This document shows positions 3,447 through 17,729 of a stretch of DNA of 64,000 bases, piece after piece (the stretch's first letter is position 1; each line of letters begins with the position of its first letter). This DNA comes from Promethearchaeota archaeon (lineage in GTDB: Archaea > Asgardarchaeota > Lokiarchaeia > Sigyniarchaeales > SOKP01), in NCBI GenBank assembly GCA_048940445.1, contig JBHLON010000002.1, positions 1-64,000 of the forward strand, given 5' to 3'. A program made the translations under genes and the position numbers. The notes beneath the pieces were generated by a model, which saw only the letters and a list, made by a program, of their open reading frames with translations, did not search any database and was not told the origin of the DNA.

Positions 3447-6275
3447 GTGGAATCTAAAGAAAAAGTAAAAATAAAGCTTGGCGGTATGACATGTGCTTCA
3501 TGTGCATTAAAAATAGAAACCAAATTGAAAAATCTCGAAGGAGTGAGTAGTTCAGTTGTGAATTTTGCTAATGAGGAAGCTACTGTAGAATACAATCCTT
3601 CTAAAACAAATTATAACACATTTAATTCTGCTATACGCAACTTGGGATATAAAGCATCACTGGCAAAAATGGATCTTAAGGTAGTTGAAAGTCTAAATAT
3701 GGACGATTTTAAAACTCTTGAAACTAAGATCTTACAGATTAATGGTATTAACAGTATTAGAAGCAATTTTGAAACTAAGAAGTTCTTTATCGAGTTTAAT
3801 GAATTAAAAATAACTGAAAATGAAATATTTTCAACAGTTAAAAGCTTTGGCTATAAAATTGAAAAAGCAGCAGGAGCTATAGATAAAGAAGTTGAACAAC
3901 ATAAAAAAGAAATGAGATACAGGTTGATTCTACTTATTATTTCAATAATTTTTGCAGGAATTATTTCGCCAATTAATTTTGTTGTTCCATTCTCCTTTAC
4001 AAGAAATCTTATCCTTACAATTTTAGCGACAGCTAACTATGGAATTTCGGGCTCATTTTTCTTGAATGGAGCTTATAAGTCTCTCAAAAATAAAACAACG
4101 AATATGGATGTTCTAATTGTCTTAGGGACCACAACAGCATATATATATTCATTATTGACAACTTTTTTCATCAAAGGTGAAGTTTTTTACGATGCAATGA
4201 GTATGATTCTTGCTTTTATCTTAATAGGTAAATATTTAGAACATAAAACGAAAGGTCAAGCTTCTGAAGCAATAAAAAAACTTATAGGATTACAACCTAA
4301 GACTGCAACCTTAATAAAAGATAATCAAGAAATCGAAATTCCAATCGAAGAAATTGAGATTGGGGATACACTGTTAGTTAGACCGGGTGAAAAAGTTCCA
4401 GTAGATGGGAGAGTAATTGAAGGTAAAACCAAAGTTGATGAATCAATGATTACAGGGGAAAGCAAATATGTAAAAAAAGGGATAGGAGACAATGTCATTG
4501 GAGCCACGGTAAATCAAACAGGATTAATAAAGATGACAACAGAAAAGATTGGTAAAGAAACCCTTCTTTTTCAAATTATTGATTTTGTTAAAGAAGCTCA
4601 AGCTCGAAAAGGATCAAGACAACGCTTGGCAGATAAAGTGAGTAGTTATTTTGTTCCAATTGTTATTATAACCGCAACTATTGCTTTTTTGGGTTGGTAT
4701 TTCTTTGGAGGCCCAGATATTGGACTTGAAGGCGCTTTATTGGTTTTCACCTCTGTTGTTGTTATATCTTGTCCCTGTGCCTTGGGTTTGGCAATACCAA
4801 CAGCAATAATGGTTGGAACTGGGAAAGGTGCTGAAAATGGAATTTTAATGAAAGGAGGAGATTCTTTAGAAGCTATAAATGATATTAACACAGTAGTTTT
4901 TGATAAAACGGGTACTCTAACAATAGGAAAACCAAAAGTTACCAGTATTTTTTCTGAAAAGGATTTAAAAGGTACAGGGATAAACTCAAAAGAAGTACTT
5001 TATTTTGCTGGTAGTGCTGAAATGGGATCTGAACATCCCCTAGGACAAGCTATAATTGAAGAAGCCAACCAACAAGGTCTATCTCTTATCACTCCAAATG
5101 ACTTTGATGCTATTCCGGGAAAAGGAATAATAACTAATATAGATAGTATGCAGATTATGGTAGGTAATGAAAAATTATTTTCTGAAAATAATATTTCATT
5201 TAATGAATATAATTCTAAGTATAATGAATATCAACAACATGGATACACCACTGTATTGATTAGTATTGATGAAGAAGTTAAAGGTTTGATTGGAATAGCT
5301 GATAAAGTGAAAGATCAGGCTCCATATGCTTTAGAACAACTGAGAGAAAAAGGATTAGATATCTATATGTTAACTGGTGATAATAAACAAACAGCAATGA
5401 GCATTGGAAAAGAGTTAAATTTTGATTCAGAACATATATTAGCAGAAATACTGCCTAATGAGAAAGCTCTTACAATAAAAAATATTCAAGAATCTGAGAA
5501 AAAAGTAAAAGTTGCAATGGTTGGAGATGGTATAAATGATGCTCCTGCATTAGCACAAGCAGATGTTGGAATAGCAGTTGGATCTGGAACCGATGTAGCA
5601 ATTGAAACTGCTGATATTGTGTTGATGAGAGGTGATTTAAGAAATGTAGTTGCAGCAATTAATTTATCTCAGAAAACATATCGAAAAATGATAACAAATC
5701 TATTTTGGGCATTTATATATAATATTATTGGAATTCCACTAGCAGCTGGGTTATTATATACATTTACTGGATTTTTCCTTCCTCCATATTTAGCTGCTAT
5801 ATTTATGGCTTCAAGTTCTGTTTCAGTTGTTACAAATGCGTTGTTTTTGAAAAGGTATGAGCCAAAAACTAAACAACAAATCGAAGAAATGAAACGTTTA
5901 ACTGAAAAAAGAGTAATAGATCCTATATGTGGAATGGAAATTATTCCCAGTCAATCAATTGAATATAAATATAATGGAAAAGAATATTATTTCTGTAGTG
6001 CCGCATGTGAAAAAGAATTTAAATCAAATCCAGAAAAATACGCTAACTTTGATAATATTAATCCAAAAATTATGCAAAAACCAGTAGATTCATCAACATT
6101 AGTAACTGATCCTGTTTGTGGAATGACTGGAAAACCAGAAGATTGGATTGAATATGAATATTCGGGTAAAAGGTATTATTTCTGCAATCAATCTTGTTTA
6201 ACAGAATTTAAAAACGCTCCTGAAAAATTCATTTCTAATATCCAAGATTCTGAAAAAAATATTAATAAATTATAA
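3447..6275 (+). CDS. copA: copper-translocating P1B-type ATPase with N-terminal HMA domains and two C-terminal YHS domains
   Basis: [33 protein letters not shown] and MASSS Cu(I) transmembrane ligands; two DPxCGM...YYFC repeats; SD-like AGGTGA before the GTG start. Confidence 0.95.
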
Positions 6276-7860: not shown

Positions 7861-10173
7861 TTATACAAAAATATCTATTTGCTTTTTTGGAAAAACAGCA
7901 AAAATTTTGGAAATTGGTTCACCAACTAATAGTTTTTCTTGAACTTGCAAATGGATTGGAAAATAATCATTCAGAATTTTATAAATATAATTCCATTGTT
8001 GTTGTTCTTCTGTTACATTTTTTATTTTTGTTCTTATTTTAGAAAAGTGAGTCTTTGATTTTTTTCTTTTAAGATTCCTTATAAATTGCTTAACTATTTC
8101 TATTTTTTCTCCAGCAAATTCTTTTGGTCTAAAATTTGCATATGAATAAGCTAAGGCATCATCTACAATCGGAATAAAACTTACTACTTTATCCTCAGGC
8201 TCATCGGGATTTTCTAGAAGCCTAAACTCAATATCATGTTTACTAATACTTTCAAGGATCGGATAAAGTTCTCCTGGTGTTATTTTTGTTCTCAATTGAA
8301 TTTCTGAAGCTACTTCAGATATCGGAAATTGGAACAAAGGATATTTATCTTTATTTTCAATTCGATAAATGTATTCACTTTTTAACATGTTAATTATTGA
8401 ATCTTTTAATACTTCTGGGACATCTCTTTTTGTGAATGAAATGGTAGCTTCTTTCTTTTTTTTCTCAGTTAACCTTTCCTCTTTTAATTTTTTACTATAA
8501 GTGCTGGTAAGTGAAGACACAAAAATATCTGAAGCTTTATCTGGTTCTGAAACCTTATTCAATTTAAATAGATCTGGTGATTTTTTTGTCATAGTTTCAT
8601 ATAATCTCTTAGATAAATATGATTTAGCTTTTTTTTGCGCTACTTCCTTTTTATCAAACTTTTGTATGACTGATACAAAATCTATAAACTTTTGGGTTCC
8701 ACCGTGCTCACTCCTTGCTTTTCTAACTATAATATCGATATCGCTATCAACTAATTCATTGATAAGTGAATATATTGCATTTTTAGGTAGTTTCGTAGCT
8801 TTTATTAACTCACGATCCAAAATTTCGATAGGATATGCTTCACCTCTCCTAATATATTCGCTTTTCAATAAATTATAGATAATATCCATTTTTTCCGCTT
8901 CTTTGTCGATTGTTTCTTTTTGTAATCGAATGAACATCGATGTTTCATGAGGTTTTATATAATATACCAATAAAGTAATTCCTAGAAACAATATCATAAG
9001 AATCGAGACTATGTATTTATCAAACATCAAGAAATTTCCAATAATACTTATTTCTTGGTTAAAGATTTGAGCTTGTAATCCGAAGCGGGTTAATGTTTGA
9101 GCAATAACACATCCTAGAATTAACATAATCAATCCATCTCTCTTAAATACAAATATTTGCCACCCTAGAGACCTCCCTAATTTAAGAATGATCCTATATA
9201 AGAAAAGCATAGAAATTATGAACTCAAAAATAAAAATATATGAAACTGTAGAGCTTGTAGCACCAAATTTGGCTTTTAAAGCATTTATGGTTTCAGGTCT
9301 TAGTAGTAAAAAGATACTTACTTGAAATATTTGGAAGAAAAAAATGAAGAATATAATCAAAGAAAAGGTATAATTGTCATATAACCCTGCTCTTTTTGTT
9401 TCTGCCTTTCTACGAGTGAATATAAATTCAAAAATGATAAATAATAGTGTCATAATTAAACTAAAATAAATTAATGGCATTACTAATCTCATTTCAGTTT
9501 GATATACTTCAACTGCTTCTTGGGGGTTAGTAGATCCAAGAAAATCTAAAGAAATAAATACAAGTCCAAGACGATAAAACAAAGCTAATAAAATTAATGA
9601 GCCTAAAATTAAATAAGGAGAGATTCCTGCCAAAAATTTACGAGAACTTGAATATTTTGCTATTAATTTTGCTTCTAATTTAGTAGCAAATTTTCTAGAA
9701 TACATATAAAATCTTGTACTCAATAAGATCAACCAAATTGAAGATAACAGAAACAAATAAGTCATTAAATTTAAGTTCGTAGTGAATAAAACTAAGAAAA
9801 AAAAGTAGAATATAACTCCTACTCCCAGATAAATTATTGTTTGCTTAATAACCGAATGCTTCTCAAAAATAAAACTTCTTATCTTATTATTACTATAAAG
9901 AAAAGACAAAAGAATAAATAAAGCAACTACAGCATTTCCAACTAAAAACACTTGTTCAAAGAGTAATGGAAACGTAATTTCGGATGTATTCATTAGGGTT
10001 AATAATAGTAAAGAAGTTAAAGTAAACAATACATAAATTCCTATAAACTTTTTACTAAAAGCATAAGATTTTGATGGCTCCTTTCCTTCTAAATAAACTT
10101 CTTTAATGAATAACTTCTGATAAATTGGTTTTAATTTATTCTTAATTTTTTGTATGGACTCTTTAGATTTCAT
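7861..10173 (-). CDS. polytopic membrane protein with large cytoplasmic C-terminus containing two related winged-helix-like repeats
   Basis: About 400 aa of multiple TM helices followed by two repeats starting N(L/M)LKSEYI. Confidence 0.75.
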   Translation of the reverse strand: MKSKESIQKIKNKLKPIYQKLFIKEVYLEGKEPSKSYAFSKKFIGIYVLFTLTSLLLLTLMNTSEITFPLLFEQVFLVGNAVVALFILLSFLYSNNKIRSFIFEKHSVIKQTIIYLGVGVIFYFFFLVLFTTNLNLMTYLFLLSSIWLILLSTRFYMYSRKFATKLEAKLIAKYSSSRKFLAGISPYLILGSLILLALFYRLGLVFISLDFLGSTNPQEAVEVYQTEMRLVMPLIYFSLIMTLLFIIFEFIFTRRKAETKRAGLYDNYTFSLIIFFIFFFQIFQVSIFLLLRPETINALKAKFGATSSTVSYIFIFEFIISMLFLYRIILKLGRSLGWQIFVFKRDGLIMLILGCVIAQTLTRFGLQAQIFNQEISIIGNFLMFDKYIVSILMILFLGITLLVYYIKPHETSMFIRLQKETIDKEAEKMDIIYNLLKSEYIRRGEAYPIEILDRELIKATKLPKNAIYSLINELVDSDIDIIVRKARSEHGGTQKFIDFVSVIQKFDKKEVAQKKAKSYLSKRLYETMTKKSPDLFKLNKVSEPDKASDIFVSSLTSTYSKKLKEERLTEKKKKEATISFTKRDVPEVLKDSIINMLKSEYIYRIENKDKYPLFQFPISEVASEIQLRTKITPGELYPILESISKHDIEFRLLENPDEPEDKVVSFIPIVDDALAYSYANFRPKEFAGEKIEIVKQFIRNLKRKKSKTHFSKIRTKIKNVTEEQQQWNYIYKILNDYFPIHLQVQEKLLVGEPISKIFAVFPKKQIDIFV

Positions 10174-10297: not shown

Positions 10298-10609
10298 ATG
10301 AAAATTTTAAAAATATTCAAAAATAATAATAATATGAGCATGGAAAACGAGCAAGATAAAGAAACGATCTTAAAATTAGTCAAACAAGCAATTGAGATGC
10401 TCTGCGAAAAAAATATTTCTGAGGTAGTTGTACTTTCTTCATATAAAATTAACTCCATTTTAAAAGAGAATTATGGAGCAGATATTAGAGTAGATAAAAT
10501 TGGTAGAATATTAAGCAATATTGCAGAGAGAAATAAGTTGAAAAGGCTAAGTACAAATATTCCAAAATATAAACTTAAAATTTCAAAACTTTCATCATTA
10601 GAATTTTGA
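10298..10609 (+). CDS. small basic winged-helix-like hypothetical protein
   Basis: Helix-helix-helix-strand pattern (SSYKINSILKENYG...VDKIGRILSNIAE...KYKL); the real start may be a later Met. Confidence 0.6.
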   Translation: MKILKIFKNNNNMSMENEQDKETILKLVKQAIEMLCEKNISEVVVLSSYKINSILKENYGADIRVDKIGRILSNIAERNKLKRLSTNIPKYKLKISKLSSLEF

Positions 10610-10627: not shown

Positions 10628-12019
10628 TTACTTTAATTGTCTAAAATCAGATATTACCTTTTGGAGACGTTCAATTAAATCCTCAATCTCTTTATATTTC
10701 TCTCTTATTGGATTAGTATCTAAATTCAATTCCTCGATTTCTTTATTCAAGCCTGCGGTAAACCTTGAACTCAATATTTTGATTTCATTAATAATATTCT
10801 CAGAAAGATCATTGGTATTTTTATCAACTTCAGTAATAAGATTTGTAGATTTAATAACTAAGGGTTTAATTTTAGAATCTGTCTGTTTGATGTTATATAA
10901 TTTTACTTCTTCATAAGAGATTTTTTCTTTTAGATTTTCAACAAGCTCCAGTAAATTTCTTTCAATAATAGTCCTAGTCTCTTCAGAAATTTCTTCAAAT
11001 AATTTTAAAATGTTGCCAGTAAAGTCCTGTTGAGATTTAATTCTCCGGTCTATATATTCTGAGACATTTTTTATAAATACATTCGAAATCTCAGTAAAAC
11101 TTCTATTAAAATAATTTTGAATGTCTTCAAGACCATTCTCCACTGAATTTTTCATTTGGTTTGTTGCACTTCTAATATATTCTGTACCTTTTAGAGATCC
11201 ATTTCTAATATCCATCATCCAACTACTTAGTTGCTGTTTATATGTATCTATAAAAGAATCGGTAAATTTTGAAGTTCCTTCCCTAAACCCTGAAAAAATT
11301 GGTTCTATTAGCTCTTTAAACTCATCAACCTCACCATTTAAAATAAGCTGAATTTTAGGAATTTCCTGAAGCTCATCAAGGGCTGGTTTCCTAATTTCAT
11401 CGAATTCATTAATAATTATAGGAGTTTTTCTTTGTGTATCTTCGACAAGTTCTTTTATCCACTTATAAAAATCTAAGGTATGAGGTAATTCTATTTCATA
11501 TGGAACTTTTAAATATTCGCTTTCTGTTCCTCTTGAAAAATCTTTTAACCTAAAAATTTCGAGCCCGAAATTATTTTTTGCATTGAGTAAAGAGCAATCA
11601 ACAATTACGATAAATCTATCTGGATTTTTTTCATTTTGGAAATACAGCTGATTACTTTTATCAGCATGAGAAAGGAAGAGTCCTCCCTTTAATCTTGAAT
11701 GGTACCATCCAAGAATTTCAAAGTTAGTGGTATTGACACTCTCTTCAATCTGAATAATTTTCTGATGAAGTTCTTGAGAAAATCCTAATTCTGCTATATC
11801 TCCGTGCGATAGAGGAATCACATTTAAAATATTTAGTCTTTTATCTAATCTTTCACCTACACAAATTCCCATAACTTCCTGATTTTCTTCCAGTGATTCA
11901 TTTGCGAACTTTGATACGTGGGTTAGTATTTTCCTAAAAGCATCATTTCTGAAATAAACCTTCCAATCTTCCGCTACTTCTATATCTTCTCCTTCTTTTT
12001 TATTATCTTGATTTATCAA
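10628..12019 (-). CDS. MPN (JAB1/Mov34) domain protein with degenerate JAMM motif and long helical/coiled-coil C-terminus
   Basis: EVMGICVG and GWYHSRLKGGLFLSHAD (second Zn-ligand His replaced by Arg); about 240-aa amphipathic helical tail. Confidence 0.85.
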   Translation of the reverse strand: MINQDNKKEGEDIEVAEDWKVYFRNDAFRKILTHVSKFANESLEENQEVMGICVGERLDKRLNILNVIPLSHGDIAELGFSQELHQKIIQIEESVNTTNFEILGWYHSRLKGGLFLSHADKSNQLYFQNEKNPDRFIVIVDCSLLNAKNNFGLEIFRLKDFSRGTESEYLKVPYEIELPHTLDFYKWIKELVEDTQRKTPIIINEFDEIRKPALDELQEIPKIQLILNGEVDEFKELIEPIFSGFREGTSKFTDSFIDTYKQQLSSWMMDIRNGSLKGTEYIRSATNQMKNSVENGLEDIQNYFNRSFTEISNVFIKNVSEYIDRRIKSQQDFTGNILKLFEEISEETRTIIERNLLELVENLKEKISYEEVKLYNIKQTDSKIKPLVIKSTNLITEVDKNTNDLSENIINEIKILSSRFTAGLNKEIEELNLDTNPIREKYKEIEDLIERLQKVISDFRQLK

Positions 12020-12031
12020 GTTAGAACACGC

Positions 12032-13489
12032 TCATTTTTTTAACCCTTTAATTTCATTCTTTAAATCCCTAATAGTATTGACAAGATTTTTCTTCTCAGT
12101 CTCTAACTTTTCAATCTTATTAAGGACTGGACTTTTAGAACCTTCAAGAACTAAAATAGCTGCTTTAAGATCAGCTAATACTTTTTTTAAATCTTTATCT
12201 AAATCAGAGAAAATAGCCTGAACATTCGAAATTCTTTTCTTAAAGTTATTTAAAATACCTTCTTGGTTTTCTTCAATAGCTCCTTTGATTCTAGACTTGA
12301 TTGGATCAATTATGTTATTGAGGTTCTCTATTTTATTATAGTGACTTGCTAAATCTTTAAAAACCAATTCATTTGCTCTATAAATTTCCTCTAAATTTTC
12401 TAAATTATTATTGAATTTGTTTAACATTTCAGTAATATTAGGTAAAAATTTGTTATCAATTCCCTCATGTATAGAATTAATAAGATTTTGTTTAAAAACC
12501 TCAATTTTTTTTTCCATATCACTGAATGTAGCATCAAAATCATCGAGTTTATCATCAATGTAGAAATCCAATCCTTTCAATTTGTCTTGTAATGAGAAAT
12601 TGTATGATTTTTGAAGGTTGGCTATTCCATTACTTAAATTTTCCTTAAGTTGGACTAAATCATTTCTTATTTGTGAATTATTGTAAAAAGTTTTTTTTAT
12701 AATATCTTGACTCCACATATTAAGAATCTCAATTAATGGTTCAATAGATAAATCGATAAATACCCCAAAACTTTTTTTAAGATTACTCAATAGATCGGGA
12801 ATTGACAATTCTGGGATATTACCTTCCAATTGTTTCTGTTCAGGAAAGAATATATCCCCAAATAGTTCCGTGGTTTCGTTCAACTCTAGAATAGGCGCTT
12901 CTTCTGAGTAGATACTATTTATCAAATTAATTATTTTCTCGTAAAACTCAAGGTTATTTGGTGGTTCGACTATTGCTTTAACTTCATAGTATTTAGAATT
13001 GAGCCCTTTTGAAGGGTCTTCTAATCTAAAGACTCTAAACCCTAAATCTCCTGTTTTTTCTAAGTAAGCATGATCAAACACAATTCCTAATCCACTCGGG
13101 TTTTTATCTTGCCAAAAAAGTTGATTAAAAATATCAGTGCTTGAAAAAAAGATTCCCAGATTAGGGTGTGAATGATACCATCCTACTGTAAACCAATTCT
13201 TATTGCCATGCTCTTCCCAGATTTGCTTATCTATCTCTCCAAAAGCGCCAAGTTGATCTGGGTTAAATTTTACTTCAATTGATCCACCGTGCGATATAGG
13301 AATAACATCTTCGATTATTACGTCTTTAATTTCTCTTTCACCAATTTGATGTCCTATAAGCATCCCCATAACTTCCTTATATTCATTTACTGCTTGTGTT
13401 TTGGATCCGAATCTAAGGACATGAACAAGCATTTTATAATATGCCATTGGTTTGATAGTAACGACACTAGTATCTGTAATTTTACCCAT
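12032..13489 (-). CDS. MPN+/JAMM metalloisopeptidase (Rpn11/CSN5-like) with long helical/coiled-coil C-terminus
   Basis: EVMGMLIG and VGWYHSHPNLGIFFSSTD (complete E...HxH-x7-S-x2-D); helical tail. Confidence 0.9.
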   Translation of the reverse strand: MGKITDTSVVTIKPMAYYKMLVHVLRFGSKTQAVNEYKEVMGMLIGHQIGEREIKDVIIEDVIPISHGGSIEVKFNPDQLGAFGEIDKQIWEEHGNKNWFTVGWYHSHPNLGIFFSSTDIFNQLFWQDKNPSGLGIVFDHAYLEKTGDLGFRVFRLEDPSKGLNSKYYEVKAIVEPPNNLEFYEKIINLINSIYSEEAPILELNETTELFGDIFFPEQKQLEGNIPELSIPDLLSNLKKSFGVFIDLSIEPLIEILNMWSQDIIKKTFYNNSQIRNDLVQLKENLSNGIANLQKSYNFSLQDKLKGLDFYIDDKLDDFDATFSDMEKKIEVFKQNLINSIHEGIDNKFLPNITEMLNKFNNNLENLEEIYRANELVFKDLASHYNKIENLNNIIDPIKSRIKGAIEENQEGILNNFKKRISNVQAIFSDLDKDLKKVLADLKAAILVLEGSKSPVLNKIEKLETEKKNLVNTIRDLKNEIKGLKK

Positions 13490-13613
13490 TATTTGTCACT
13501 TAATCTATCAAGTTTAGATATAGTTAACGTTTGTTATATTTATAATTTATCTCATTTAAAAATTGATTTAAACAATTATAAAAATATAGCTAGTGAATAA
13601 TTTAATATCTATT

Positions 13614-14243
13614 TTAATGCGGAAGTTTTCCACCACAATAAGGACAATATTTCCAATCTAAATCTTTTCCGCAATGAGGACAGAATGTTGATGGACCTTC
13701 TTCGGCTTTAGGTATAGAAGGCAAATCTCTCGAGGTTTTAATCGTCTCAGCTCTTCTTTCTGCTTCTTCTTGTTTTTTATGTATCATTCTTTCTTTAAAT
13801 GCTTGACGTTTTTCTTCTTCTAGTTCTTGTATAGACTTCATTCCTTCTTCCTTTACCCACCCTACGGTTTGTGGTCTTTTTAATTCACTTTGTGGAACTT
13901 TCTCTAATTCTATTTTTTTAGTTTCTTCTAAGGGTGCCATTACTCTTTTTTGTTCTTTCTTTTCAAGGGCTTGTTTCACCAATGCCTGTGTGGTCTTCAT
14001 GACTTGGTGTGGATTTATATTTGGAATAGCAACAGTTCGTAAAACCCAACCTACAATTAAATTTTGATTAGGAAAACCTCCATCTGAAATATCTTCATCT
14101 TTATATATGTATGAATCTATAACTGACTGTCCTTTTAATAATCTTGAAGCCCACATTTTATTAATAAGCCCTAATTGTATTCTATATGATGTACCGGGTA
14201 TTCCCAACTGACTTGTTAATGGTTCAAAACCTTTTTCTGTCAT
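13614..14243 (-). CDS. hypothetical protein with charged linker and C-terminal zinc ribbon
   Basis: CPHCG...CPYCG at the C-terminus; ATG 14243 preferred over TTG 14252. Confidence 0.75.
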   Translation of the reverse strand: MTEKGFEPLTSQLGIPGTSYRIQLGLINKMWASRLLKGQSVIDSYIYKDEDISDGGFPNQNLIVGWVLRTVAIPNINPHQVMKTTQALVKQALEKKEQKRVMAPLEETKKIELEKVPQSELKRPQTVGWVKEEGMKSIQELEEEKRQAFKERMIHKKQEEAERRAETIKTSRDLPSIPKAEEGPSTFCPHCGKDLDWKYCPYCGGKLPH

Positions 14244-14450
14244 TATTATCAAAAGATTGTAGTTATCTTCGAATCAGAAATATTCTGATATTAGTAATAA
14301 TATAATGGTAAATTATGAATTTAAATAATTTTATGTTTTAATTGACAAAATGGAATTAGATATCATTTAATTCAAGAAAAAAATAGACATAAATATAGGT
14401 AATAGTATAAAAATATCAATTAGAAAATTATTTTGACTTAAAATAGAATT

Positions 14451-15404
14451 ATGACAGTGATCATTCCAAAAGAAGCATATTTGACAGTTGTGGCGGCTTC
14501 AGTTAGATTTGCAAATAGAAGGATTCCTCAGGATGATTGGTTAGAGGTTAATGGAGTATTTATTGGAGAATTTAGAGAAGAGGATGTCATAATAAAAGAA
14601 GCTTATCCCATTATGCATCAAAAACTAGATAAGACCGCAGTAATCGATAAATATGAATGGTCTGAAGAAGATAATCTTTCTTACACTTTAATCGATGATG
14701 AGGCTTACTCAAGAAGCCTCTTCACAGTCGGATCTTGGCATTCACATCCAGGCTTTAAAGTAATGCTAAGTCATATTGACATTAGACACCTTGCATTCCA
14801 TCAAGGAGTAAACCCAAAGTATTTCACATTGGTATTTAATCCTAAAAGATTAGAAAGTCAAATAGAAATGCCTGAGAAGAAAGGTAATCCAGAAATTCCG
14901 CTTAAGGATGATCCTGGATTTAAAATTTTTAGCCTAGATGATGTAAATAGAGGAATTGAGGCTTCTTATCATACTCTTCAATATCAAATAGAAGGTTATG
15001 ACTCGATGGAACAATTAGTTAATTTAACTCAAAAATTCGCTATTGAAATCACTAATTTCTTTCCTAAGGAAAACCTTCTTGAAACATATGAAAAAATTAT
15101 AATGGAAAAGACACAAAATTTAGACTCCCTTCTTTTAGGTACGGAGGAATATCTTGCTACTTTAGTAAGAAAAGGAGAATCACCAAGGATTCCCGAAGTC
15201 TTAGAGAATCAAACAAGAGACATTAGAAAATTTATTGCTGAAACATTTATTAAAATTGATAATATTAAACAATTTTTGAATTATCTAGAATATAAAGAGA
15301 GAGATAACACACTCCCTCAGTTAAGTGAGATTTTTTCAAGATGGGATGAAAAAATCTCCATTATTGATTTAAAATTAAATAAGTTAGCAAAGCAATATGA
15401 ATAG
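14451..15404 (+). CDS. MPN+/JAMM metalloisopeptidase with helical C-terminus
   Basis: EVNGVFIG and VGSWHSHPGFKVMLSHID (complete JAMM motif). Confidence 0.88.
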   Translation: MTVIIPKEAYLTVVAASVRFANRRIPQDDWLEVNGVFIGEFREEDVIIKEAYPIMHQKLDKTAVIDKYEWSEEDNLSYTLIDDEAYSRSLFTVGSWHSHPGFKVMLSHIDIRHLAFHQGVNPKYFTLVFNPKRLESQIEMPEKKGNPEIPLKDDPGFKIFSLDDVNRGIEASYHTLQYQIEGYDSMEQLVNLTQKFAIEITNFFPKENLLETYEKIIMEKTQNLDSLLLGTEEYLATLVRKGESPRIPEVLENQTRDIRKFIAETFIKIDNIKQFLNYLEYKERDNTLPQLSEIFSRWDEKISIIDLKLNKLAKQYE

Positions 15405-15524: not shown

Positions 15525-17729
15525 ATGAAAAAGATTAACTTCCCGTTTACAGCGATACTTGGTCAAGATAGAATGAAAATGGGCCTTATACTTAATGTTA
15601 TTGATCCACAAATAGGAGGGATTTTACTATCAGGTCAGCAAGGTACTGGAAAATCAACTGCAGTTAGAAGCGTAGTTGAGGTAATGCCTGAGATTAAGGT
15701 TGTTAGAGACTGTCCATTTTCATGTGATCCAAAATCTAGCATTGATGATTTATGTGAAGAATGCCGTAAAAAAAAGGAAAAAGGCAAAATAGAAATAGAT
15801 ACACGTGAGATGAAATTAATCAATCTCCCTCTTGGAGTGACTGAAGATATGGTATGCGGAAGTCTATCTATTGATAAGGTTTTAACTGAAGGAATAAAAA
15901 GTCTTCATCCTGGGTTACTCGCTAAAGCAAATAGAGGGATTCTCTATATTGATGAGATTAATCTTTTGCAAGATCATATTGTTGATACATTACTGGATGC
16001 AGCAGCATCAGGTGTTAATATTATAGAAAGGGAAGGAATTTCAGTTATGCATCCTTCAAGATTCGTTTTGGTAGGCTCAATGAATCCAGAAGAAGGCGAA
16101 TTAAGACCACAAATTGCTGATCGCCTTGGATTAGAGGTGAAGATCAAAGCCCCAAGAGATCCCAGATTAAGATCAGAAATAACACGTCGAGTAATTGAAT
16201 TTGATGATAACCCAAAAGATTTTATTAAACAGTATGAAAAAGGGGAAGAAAAGCTACGAGAAAGGATTAAACAAGCGCGAGAAATTTTAAAGGATGTGAA
16301 AGTCCCCGTATCAGTTTTTGAATTTGTTTCAATGATAGTTAATGAATTGGAGATTTTTTCTCAAAGAGCAGATATCACATTCATTCGATGTGCGAGAGCT
16401 CATGCTGCTTTTAATGGGAGAAAGGAAGTAGCTGAAGAAGATTTAAATATTGCGATGGATTTAGTTTTCGAACATAGAATTCAATCACTACACTACGAAA
16501 TGACTCCTAAAGAAATAAAGGCAAAAATTGCAGAAGTTTATGGAAAAATACAGAAAGCTTATGAAGATCCACAGGCTTACAAACCAAATAAAAATACAGA
16601 AGGTCCATTAAAGTATGACGATAAGATTCAAAAAGAATTTAAACGTCAATCAGTAGATCCAAAAAAAGTGAAACTTCCAGAGACTAAAGAACAGAAATTA
16701 CCACCACCTAAATATCCTGATAATAAAAAAAGAAACCCTGCTCCAGCAGGAGGATGGAAAGTCAAAAATATTCCTTTTGATGAGTTAGACCTCAAATTTT
16801 TTGAAAACGAAATTGAGGATTTACCATTAATTTATAGAATGGAGCAAAAAATGAGTTCTATCTTAGATAATATTCGAAAAGAAAGAAAAGTATCTGATTA
16901 TGGTGGACGTGGTATAGGAAGACGTATCAAAATATCATCTTCTCAAAAGGGTAAATATATATCATATCGAGCTCCATTGAATAAACCAAAAAGTCTAGCT
17001 TTAGATGCTACTATTAGGAATTACTTAAAAAATACAATATACAATCAGACTGATATTGAGTTTCCAATTAAATTTGACAAATACGATTTAATGGATAAAA
17101 TATTTGAATATCGATCTCCTTTATTATTATTCTTTGTACTCGATAGTTCAGCTTCAATGTACTATGTAATCAAGCAAATGACTGATGTAATTTTATCCTT
17201 ACAAAAGGAAGGATATAGAAAACGCGATAAAATAAGTTTAATAATCTTCAGAGGGAAAGAAGCTATTGTATTAGAAAAGCCAACGGTCTACTTTAAAAAG
17301 GCTGTAACTAAATTAAAGAATATTGAGGGTAAATCTTATACACCTATGGCAGCGGCTCTGACAAAATGTATTAAATTAATAAATGCCGAAAAACTGAAGA
17401 ATCGGAACATTATTCCCGTTATTTTTATATGTTCAGATTGCGGAGCAAATATATCTGTTAAGAATCCTGGATTGATTGCCCAAATTCAGAGTGATTATAC
17501 TATTATCATTAATGAATTGCAAGAATTAACAAAATCCTTATCAAAAAAAGGAGTTCATCTTGTAGTTTTAGAGCCTAAAAAAAGTTATGCAACTCAAGCT
17601 TTAGGTGTTAATACATATGCTGCTGATAAAATCAAAAAGAATTTTAAAGAATTTGGAAAGGCTCAAATTTTTCAATTTGATAAGTATAATCCAGAACGGT
17701 TAATTTTAGAATTAAAACGAATTTTATAA
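15525..17729 (+). CDS. chelatase subunit ChlI/ChlD-type AAA+ ATPase fused to vWA domain
   Basis: FPFTAILGQ, GQQGTGKST, GILYIDEINLL, NPEEGELRPQ, Pro-rich linker, MIDAS DSSAS. Confidence 0.88.
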   Translation: MKKINFPFTAILGQDRMKMGLILNVIDPQIGGILLSGQQGTGKSTAVRSVVEVMPEIKVVRDCPFSCDPKSSIDDLCEECRKKKEKGKIEIDTREMKLINLPLGVTEDMVCGSLSIDKVLTEGIKSLHPGLLAKANRGILYIDEINLLQDHIVDTLLDAAASGVNIIEREGISVMHPSRFVLVGSMNPEEGELRPQIADRLGLEVKIKAPRDPRLRSEITRRVIEFDDNPKDFIKQYEKGEEKLRERIKQAREILKDVKVPVSVFEFVSMIVNELEIFSQRADITFIRCARAHAAFNGRKEVAEEDLNIAMDLVFEHRIQSLHYEMTPKEIKAKIAEVYGKIQKAYEDPQAYKPNKNTEGPLKYDDKIQKEFKRQSVDPKKVKLPETKEQKLPPPKYPDNKKRNPAPAGGWKVKNIPFDELDLKFFENEIEDLPLIYRMEQKMSSILDNIRKERKVSDYGGRGIGRRIKISSSQKGKYISYRAPLNKPKSLALDATIRNYLKNTIYNQTDIEFPIKFDKYDLMDKIFEYRSPLLLFFVLDSSASMYYVIKQMTDVILSLQKEGYRKRDKISLIIFRGKEAIVLEKPTVYFKKAVTKLKNIEGKSYTPMAAALTKCIKLINAEKLKNRNIIPVIFICSDCGANISVKNPGLIAQIQSDYTIIINELQELTKSLSKKGVHLVVLEPKKSYATQALGVNTYAADKIKKNFKEFGKAQIFQFDKYNPERLILELKRIL

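Follow-up and report, generated by a model that had tools for sequence, protein, structure and literature searches.

A tandem pair of stalked MPN proteins in Lokiarchaeia, probably a heteromeric complex that evolved separately in archaea

The window analysed here is a stretch of 64,000 nucleotides from a Promethearchaeota archaeon of the Lokiarchaeia (assembly GCA_048940445.1, contig JBHLON010000002.1). It contains three genes with an MPN domain, termed A, B and C, each of which matches the Pfam family JAB above the cut-off. The three open reading frames reported in an earlier note on this DNA were confirmed, together with the intact JAMM motifs of A and C and the lost zinc ligand of B. The main subject is the pair A and B, which likely encode the subunits of a parallel heteromer. 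The two genes lie in tandem, B starting at a TTG codon 12 nt past the stop codon of A. The features of the three genes are as follows.

12032..13489, minus strand: gene A (485 residues), with an MPN+/JAMM head, a linker, a long stalk and an A-only C-terminal zipper.
12905..13465, minus strand: head of A (residues 9-195), its zinc site intact and its Ins-1 segment (residues 64-75) near-invariant.
12134..12766, minus strand: stalk of A (residues 242-452), a predicted continuous helix with 11-residue periodicity over its first ~140 residues.
12035..12133, minus strand: A-only heptad zipper (residues 453-485), reaching beyond the end of B, with Asn/Lys at the core a positions.
10628..12019, minus strand: gene B (463 residues), a paralog of A with a degenerate JAMM motif and the same head-linker-stalk plan.
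11693..11695, minus strand: codon AGA of Arg109, which replaces the second zinc-binding His of B.
10634..11296, minus strand: stalk of B (residues 242-462), matching the phase of the A stalk at an offset of +8 and anti-covarying with it in charge at +10, +6 and +13.
14451..15404, plus strand: gene C (317 residues), with an intact JAMM motif, from a separate subfamily of the same Lokiarchaeal MPN expansion.

A and C combine the MPN fold with the complete motif E-xn-H-S/T-H-x7-S-x2-D of JAMM/MPN+ enzymes. The motif residues are Glu39, His106, His108, Ser116 and Asp119 in A and Glu32, His97, His99, Ser107 and Asp110 in C. B retains Glu48, His107, Ser117 and Asp120, and Arg109 stands in place of the second His. 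This change is neither unique to one strain nor an assembly error. The AGA codon differs from the His codons at all three positions, it recurs in contigs from two further samples (one of them belonging to a separate study), and the replacement is common to nine genomes. In the clade carrying it, the ratio of nonsynonymous to synonymous substitution rates (dN/dS) amounts to 0.13-0.17 for B; A has 0.10-0.12, and an ATP-grasp gene nearby has 0.21-0.24. With a metal ligand lost and a head dN/dS of 0.13-0.16, B of the source genome is of the MPN- pseudo-enzyme type, and the data support it as a selected pseudo-enzyme in this lineage. Every one of the 120 copies of A that could be scored in full has the motif intact, and the five motif residues are invariant in 118 of 118 database homologs. 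In one subclade of A (L044:10063-11523 and related loci) three residues are inserted between the second motif His and the Ser; its B partners have a one-residue insertion at the corresponding place and a Glu→Gln change.

The single-chain models of A and B, built by AlphaFold2 with family alignments (mean predicted local distance difference test score (pLDDT) 77, predicted template modelling score 0.42-0.45), revealed an MPN head up to about residue 195, a low-confidence linker at about residues 200-240, and then a helix. The tail is predicted as one continuous helix of about 220-240 residues, comprising residues 242-484 in A and residues 242-431 and 436-462 in B. The earlier note had assigned long helical tails to both proteins and likened them to the C-terminal helical bundles of eukaryotic MPN dimers. 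The long helices are borne out, but the compact bundle of short C-terminal helices is not seen in the single-chain models, where a continuous helix takes its place. The hydrophobic residues of the stalks follow a period of 3.67, corresponding to 11-residue repeats, over the first ~140 residues and shift toward heptads at the end of A, and the patterns of the two proteins are in phase at B = A+8 (r 0.66). The length of the stalk is nearly fixed: the anchor span from Trp259 to Lys452 of A measures 194 residues in 103 of 121 pairs, and the matching span of B measures 194 residues in 110 of 121 sequences, or some 29 nm if each residue adds 1.5 Å. Compared with B, A has a further 30 residues, patterned regularly like a leucine zipper and with Asn/Lys in the core. 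This zipper is missing from A copies outside the family; it may serve A-A pairing and hints at an A2B2 assembly. The E-G peripheral stalk of the A/V-type ATPases, a parallel heterodimeric coiled coil with 11-residue repeats and a tail of 120 Å (PMC3293630), offers a structural analogy for which no homology is claimed. For A-B we infer about 300 Å, and the E-G stalk has no protease head.

In Foldseek searches the A model matched BRCC36, Rpn11 and CSN5 with a probability of 1.00, and also the Rpn11-like CsRpn11 of the archaeon Caldiarchaeum subterraneum, over the MPN head only. The top two matches were the complexes BRCC36-Abraxas and BRCC36-KIAA0157 (ABRO1), and CsRpn11 was the best sequence match of A in the PDB. 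The Ins-1 segment of A is near-invariant and aligns with Ins-1 of BRCC36 and CsRpn11. B conserves the helices alpha1 and alpha4, and its Ins-1 strand is relaxed.

An ortholog of A is present in 122 of the family's 134 other genomes and in five of 19 genomes from the other families of the order; the named homologs and related loci are mostly labelled Promethearchaeota or Lokiarchaeota. Two complete genomes, of 4,324,194 and 6,035,313 bp, gave no match to A. The strongest match of A across 151 genomes sampled from other Asgard orders had an E-value of 1.9e-28, compared with 1e-107 or lower for true orthologs. A search of 33 such genomes with a head profile, in which 28 loci were inspected, yielded no stalked tandem pair. 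The census comprises 124 A-B pairs from 123 genomes. The synteny in relatives that the earlier note had named as a check is present: A and B are spaced by -35 to +48 nt in 123 of the 124 pairs, and in most pairs a GGAGG-like site for B lies within the final codons of A, supporting A and B as a conserved, translationally coupled pair. The Gly-Gly end that this site encodes in many copies of A was considered as a ubiquitin-type C-terminus and rejected. In the sole pair with A and B apart (L135:3494-12356, genome G155) the distance is about 6 kb. Genome G039 has four MPN genes in a row (L059:5446-9670): two short, tail-less ones with completely degenerate motifs and, immediately downstream, an A-B pair whose motifs are both intact. 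Its second A-B pair (L061:7194-9270) has a degenerate B and stalks that are both about 100 residues shorter.

The state of B is far more variable than that of A. Among 123 scored copies, 38 have an intact motif, four differ by Ser→Thr only, and 81 have lost Glu, His or Asp by many routes. At least 11 state changes of B are required on a tree of A alone, eight of them forced by strong branches, and at least seven on a B tree with the motif masked. The earlier note's description of an obligate enzyme/pseudo-enzyme complex is not upheld, since the motif of B is complete in roughly one genome out of three, deep branches included. Purifying selection, motif losses by many routes, the conserved alpha1 and alpha4 and the relaxed Ins-1 together suggest that B is retained as a structural protein whose catalysis is dispensable.

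Association of the two stalks was examined by charge covariation. A and B were aligned separately for 119 genome-matched pairs, the charge covariance was summed along each stalk-by-stalk diagonal, and the null came from simulating independently evolving columns 200 times on the joint tree. Anti-covariation between A and B reached z -11.4 at an offset of +10, -6.6 at +6 and -5.8 at +13, against a background standard deviation of 1.43. Relative to the in-phase offset these positions are +2, -2 and +5, and such offsets fit the flanking salt bridges of a parallel coiled coil. Predicted charge pairs are A433-B439, A347-B353, A436-B446 and A354-B364. The signal at +10 is equal in all four quarters of the stalk and matches the i+3/i+4 signals within each helix in strength, and when three disjoint sets of taxa are taken separately, none of the 217 offsets is more negative in any of them. 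It is present with intact B (-4.5) and with dead B (-10.5). No comparable antiparallel peak was found in the A-B charge covariance, and the A-A and B-B comparisons gave little charge signal at spacings of 2 and 5. Mutual information between the stalks also showed a near-diagonal excess (4.96 versus 2.75 ± 0.32 simulated). The signed charge test is preferred, since over half of the mutual-information excess is a column-type artefact that is present with random pairing too. The top single covarying pairs between the heads were uninterpretable. The covariation supports stalks that co-evolve as a parallel hetero-coiled coil irrespective of whether B is dead.

Alternatively, A and B could form separate homo-oligomers, or B could be a fading spare copy, with adjacency left over merely from tandem duplication. 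Tandem duplicates are adjacent by origin, the site of B decays in many ways, and complex prediction for A-B gave weak support: its score was 0.60, compared with 0.00 for the best control, with contacts agreeing by at least 77% between runs and a partner pLDDT of at least 69. The mark used was passed by 58 of 80 solved complexes and by two of 110 mismatches, and at 0.60 or below only seven solved complexes and both mismatches are found. However, B is under strong purifying selection, it is missing beside A at contig ends only, and the charge covariation runs between A and B, not within either protein at the matching spacings. Cognate A-B pairs score 12.4 at these offsets, which were picked on the same data, compared with 4.1 for non-cognate pairs and 5.3 and 5.7 for homo-pairs. 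Homo-oligomers or a spare copy are therefore unlikely, and a parallel A-B heteromer is likely. The complex on a coiled-coil scaffold suggested in the earlier note agrees with the strong stalk covariation and, weakly, with the heterodimer prediction.

The earlier note also regarded the locus as a candidate precursor of the eukaryotic JAMM complexes, so that A and B would be direct orthologs of the subunits of Rpn11-Rpn8, CSN5-CSN6 or BRCC36-Abraxas. This explanation draws on the Asgard host, on Rpn11, BRCC36 and CSN5 as the best solved matches, and on the same active/inactive logic. It was weighed with a tree of 95 MPN heads with tails removed (175 columns), to which Rpn8, CSN6, BRCC36 and Abraxas do not belong and whose deep branches need caution. 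Its eukaryotic Rpn11 and CSN5 sequences were taken from metagenome contigs; a metagenome scan gave Rpn11 and CSN5 only, and pattern scans of viral contigs gave no eukaryotic MPN. A and B are sisters (support 96/88). A stalked gene from a different family within their order is in turn sister to the two (96/79), with no second MPN gene beside it in either of the two loci long enough to tell. A, B and this stalked relative fall with C and several further paralogs into one Lokiarchaeal group (100/96), while Rpn11 and CSN5 group with short and C-terminally hydrophobic Asgard MPN proteins (100/97). Constraining A to join Rpn11 and CSN5 was rejected by the approximately unbiased test (p=0.011). The tree supports A and B as sister paralogs from a duplication inside Lokiarchaeia, and A is apparently not an ortholog of Rpn11 or CSN5.

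The same appears to hold for B with respect to Rpn8, CSN6 and Abraxas: its sister is A, and its profile prefers MPN+ proteins (Rpn11 46.6 bits, Rpn8 22.5 bits, CSN6 and Abraxas outside its top 60), the eukaryotic MPN- proteins being outside the tree. The Pfam families RPN11_C, CSN5_C, BRCC36_C and MitMem_reg gave no match in A or B, and eukaryotic C-terminal Pfam families are absent among the 25 commonest matches of B homologs. Together with the many recent losses in B and the absence of a stalked pair from the sampled genomes of other Asgard orders, these results make a direct precursor very improbable. A duplication inside one order and many recent losses also argue that A-B was not the source of the eukaryotic MPN- subunits. 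Several MPN+ proteins of other Asgard orders (L112:6281-7018, L114:6426-7088, L116:5958-6632, L127:5400-6251, L131:5353-6210 and L132:5586-6437) have a hydrophobic C-terminal end, possibly a membrane anchor, and branch beside Rpn11/CSN5.

The A-B pair resembles BRCC36-Abraxas/ABRO1 and Rpn11-Rpn8 in its working and is a member of neither. BRCC36-Abraxas and BRCC36-KIAA0157, the cores of BRCA1-A and BRISC, likewise join an MPN+ head to a pseudo-enzyme paralog through C-terminal helices, and BRCC36 is activated by its partner and requires a dimer of heterodimers (PMC4579573). However, the BRCC36 complexes have a short coiled-coil helical bundle packed on the heads, whereas A and B have a linker of about 45 residues followed by an extended stalk of about 200, and B is often intact. 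No BRCC45- or MERIT40-like genes were seen beside the A-B pair. Rpn11-Rpn8 and CSN5-CSN6 have in common with A-B the JAMM fold and motif, the conserved alpha1 and alpha4, and an enzyme with an inactive twin, but A groups apart from Rpn11/CSN5 and B is not Rpn8-like. No PCI-type gene is linked to A-B, the matches being on other contigs. Within archaea, the closest known proteins are CsRpn11 and the short JAMM proteins of Asgard ubiquitin operons. CsRpn11 is short, encoded in a ubiquitin operon and monomeric in solution, and its C-terminal helices are not needed; an active/inactive MPN organisation was stated as not known in archaea (Fuchs et al., PMC6043591). No description of an A-B pair was found in the full-text literature, a search that did not cover subscription papers and supplements.

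Matches to ubiquitin, E1 and E2 in genome-wide searches all lie elsewhere in the genome, so the absence of these genes from the window, as the earlier note had stated, is confirmed. A-B is thus not a ubiquitin-operon JAMM of the CsRpn11 type, and the source genome has operon-linked JAMM genes separately. Its ubiquitin-like loci (L084, L070, L086 and L067) include a stand-alone ubiquitin-like gene with a Gly-Gly-Ile end (C62:34908-35162), a JAMM-E1-E2-ubiquitin cluster (C110:21574-23784, with its ubiquitin-like gene at C110:23530-23784), and a cluster arranged as ubiquitin-like-E1-E2-JAMM, with an Ala-Gly end on the ubiquitin-like protein, that is divided between the ends of two contigs (C68:33390-34463 and C70:40-2091). 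Contig C68 encodes two of the ubiquitin-like proteins. The substrate of A is probably a ubiquitin-like conjugate, as its near-invariant Ins-1, aligned with those of BRCC36 and CsRpn11, makes a ubiquitin-like isopeptide the likeliest target. A real A-B heteromer might instead act on another substrate, bind lipids through amphipathic helices or serve as a strut. The stalks match apolipoprotein-type profiles, no ubiquitin genes are nearby, and a conserved neighbour is a probable membrane protein. Nevertheless, the apolipoprotein-type matches are explained by the common 11/3 periodicity, and the few prolines, the narrow hydrophobic stripe and the inter-chain charge pairing of the stalks also speak against this reading. 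With ubiquitin-like proteins, E1 and E2 encoded in the genome and Ins-1 aligned as described, such a function appears rather unlikely.

Based on these results, we propose, with a probability of about 0.68, that a stalked A-B heteromer with A as catalytic subunit and B as structural partner evolved separately in archaea. A and B would stem from one stalked JAMM gene that was duplicated in tandem within a single order of Lokiarchaeia. The two proteins would form a heteromeric complex in which the MPN heads pack together and the stalks run side by side as a parallel coiled coil of 11-residue repeats, with a near-fixed length of about 30 nm. Catalysis would fall to A, most likely as a zinc isopeptidase acting on ubiquitin-like conjugates. 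B would be kept as a structural partner whose dispensable catalysis has been lost many times, here through His109→Arg.

Several points weigh against this proposal. B is counted intact in 42 of 123 pairs, those of deep-branching genomes included, and a dead B is thus not required. The two ubiquitin-like/E1/E2 clusters of the source genome each have their own JAMM gene, and neither is linked to A-B. Since CsRpn11 is monomeric and its C-terminal helices are dispensable (PMC6043591), A may be active alone. The complex score of A-B may pass through likeness to solved MPN dimers, and the fold prediction covered the A-B pairing alone. In addition, the covariation null relies on a simple substitution model, and the offsets were picked from the data in which they were assessed, although they recur across subsets.

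The remaining genes around the pair are as follows.

13614..14252, minus strand: 212-residue protein with a C-terminal zinc ribbon, upstream of A here and also adjoining C in genomes without A-B.
10298..10609, plus strand: small conserved gene (103 residues), convergent with B, without family match.
7861..10173, minus strand: 770-residue protein with a hydrophobic N-terminal half, likely a multi-pass membrane protein, a conserved neighbour of A-B without family match.

The 770-residue protein, for which neither Atlas nor NCBIfam gives a family match, and the 103-residue gene flank B throughout the family, and the former is also found in one genome of another family. A promoter scan gave results no better than chance.

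Most genomes of the genus, and also a further genus of the family, have A, B, C and the zinc-ribbon gene close together, and the four proteins could form one larger obligate complex, with C and the zinc-ribbon protein as the members that the earlier note had considered. However, C and the zinc-ribbon gene stand side by side in some genomes without A-B, and in genome G030 they lie on a different contig from A-B; they are therefore better regarded as a separable module. C also has no stalk, its tail having no detectable homology to those of A and B (2 bits or less), and it is divergently transcribed. A four-member complex is accordingly improbable, and C is probably not a subunit of the A-B heteromer.

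Some C orthologs, in two separate subclades, carry an extra residue between the motif Ser and Asp (L039:11966-12925, L040:13592-14542, L041:12155-13105, L050:8125-9228 and L051:10770-11873); those of L039-L041 are 57-59% identical to C of the window, below the neighbouring genes. Downstream of C, a 734-residue ChlI/ChlD-like AAA+ protein with a vWA domain (15525-17729) is 80-95% conserved in the genus. An open reading frame at 3447-6275 of the window resembles a heavy-metal P-type ATPase, and its ortholog in a related locus matches HMA, E1-E2 ATPase and YHS.

The source genome has at least seven MPN genes. A further MPN+ paralog (L068:7535-9061, 508 residues) shows weak TPR/SNAP-like matches in its C-terminal part. 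In another Asgard order, genome G049 encodes a 695-residue fusion of MPN with a type II/IV secretion (PilB-like) ATPase, apparently without the JAMM motif (L109:3780-5867). The 553-residue protein P0276 (L356:4001-5662) carries TPR repeats, MPN and a weak winged-helix match in a single chain. Its gene lies downstream of a small GTPase gene and near another JAB gene, and the arrangement loosely recalls the PCI plus MPN of the proteasome lid and the COP9 signalosome (CSN).

The A-B pair would represent an active/inactive MPN arrangement in an Asgard lineage as a parallel invention, and it gives no ground for placing the origin of the proteasome lid, CSN or BRISC in archaea. The long stalk of near-fixed length is a feature that the eukaryotic complexes lack. 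A more specific version of the proposal, possible but doubtful at present, is an independently evolved archaeal BRISC-like machine. In it, an A2B2 bundle would be closed by the A-only zipper, B would switch A on, and the fixed ~30-nm stalk would set the distance from the heads to an anchor, possibly the neighbouring membrane protein. If so, the single-gene, both-active and one-dead states would replay the presumed route to the eukaryotic enzyme/pseudo-enzyme pairs. Living genomes preserve three stages: one stalked gene on its own, a pair in which neither site is damaged, and a pair whose second site is dead. The loss occurred at least 8-11 times and struck the same partner every time. The pair thereby makes testable whether the heteromer comes first and its pseudo-enzyme arises neutrally, or whether the dead partner gains a regulatory job.

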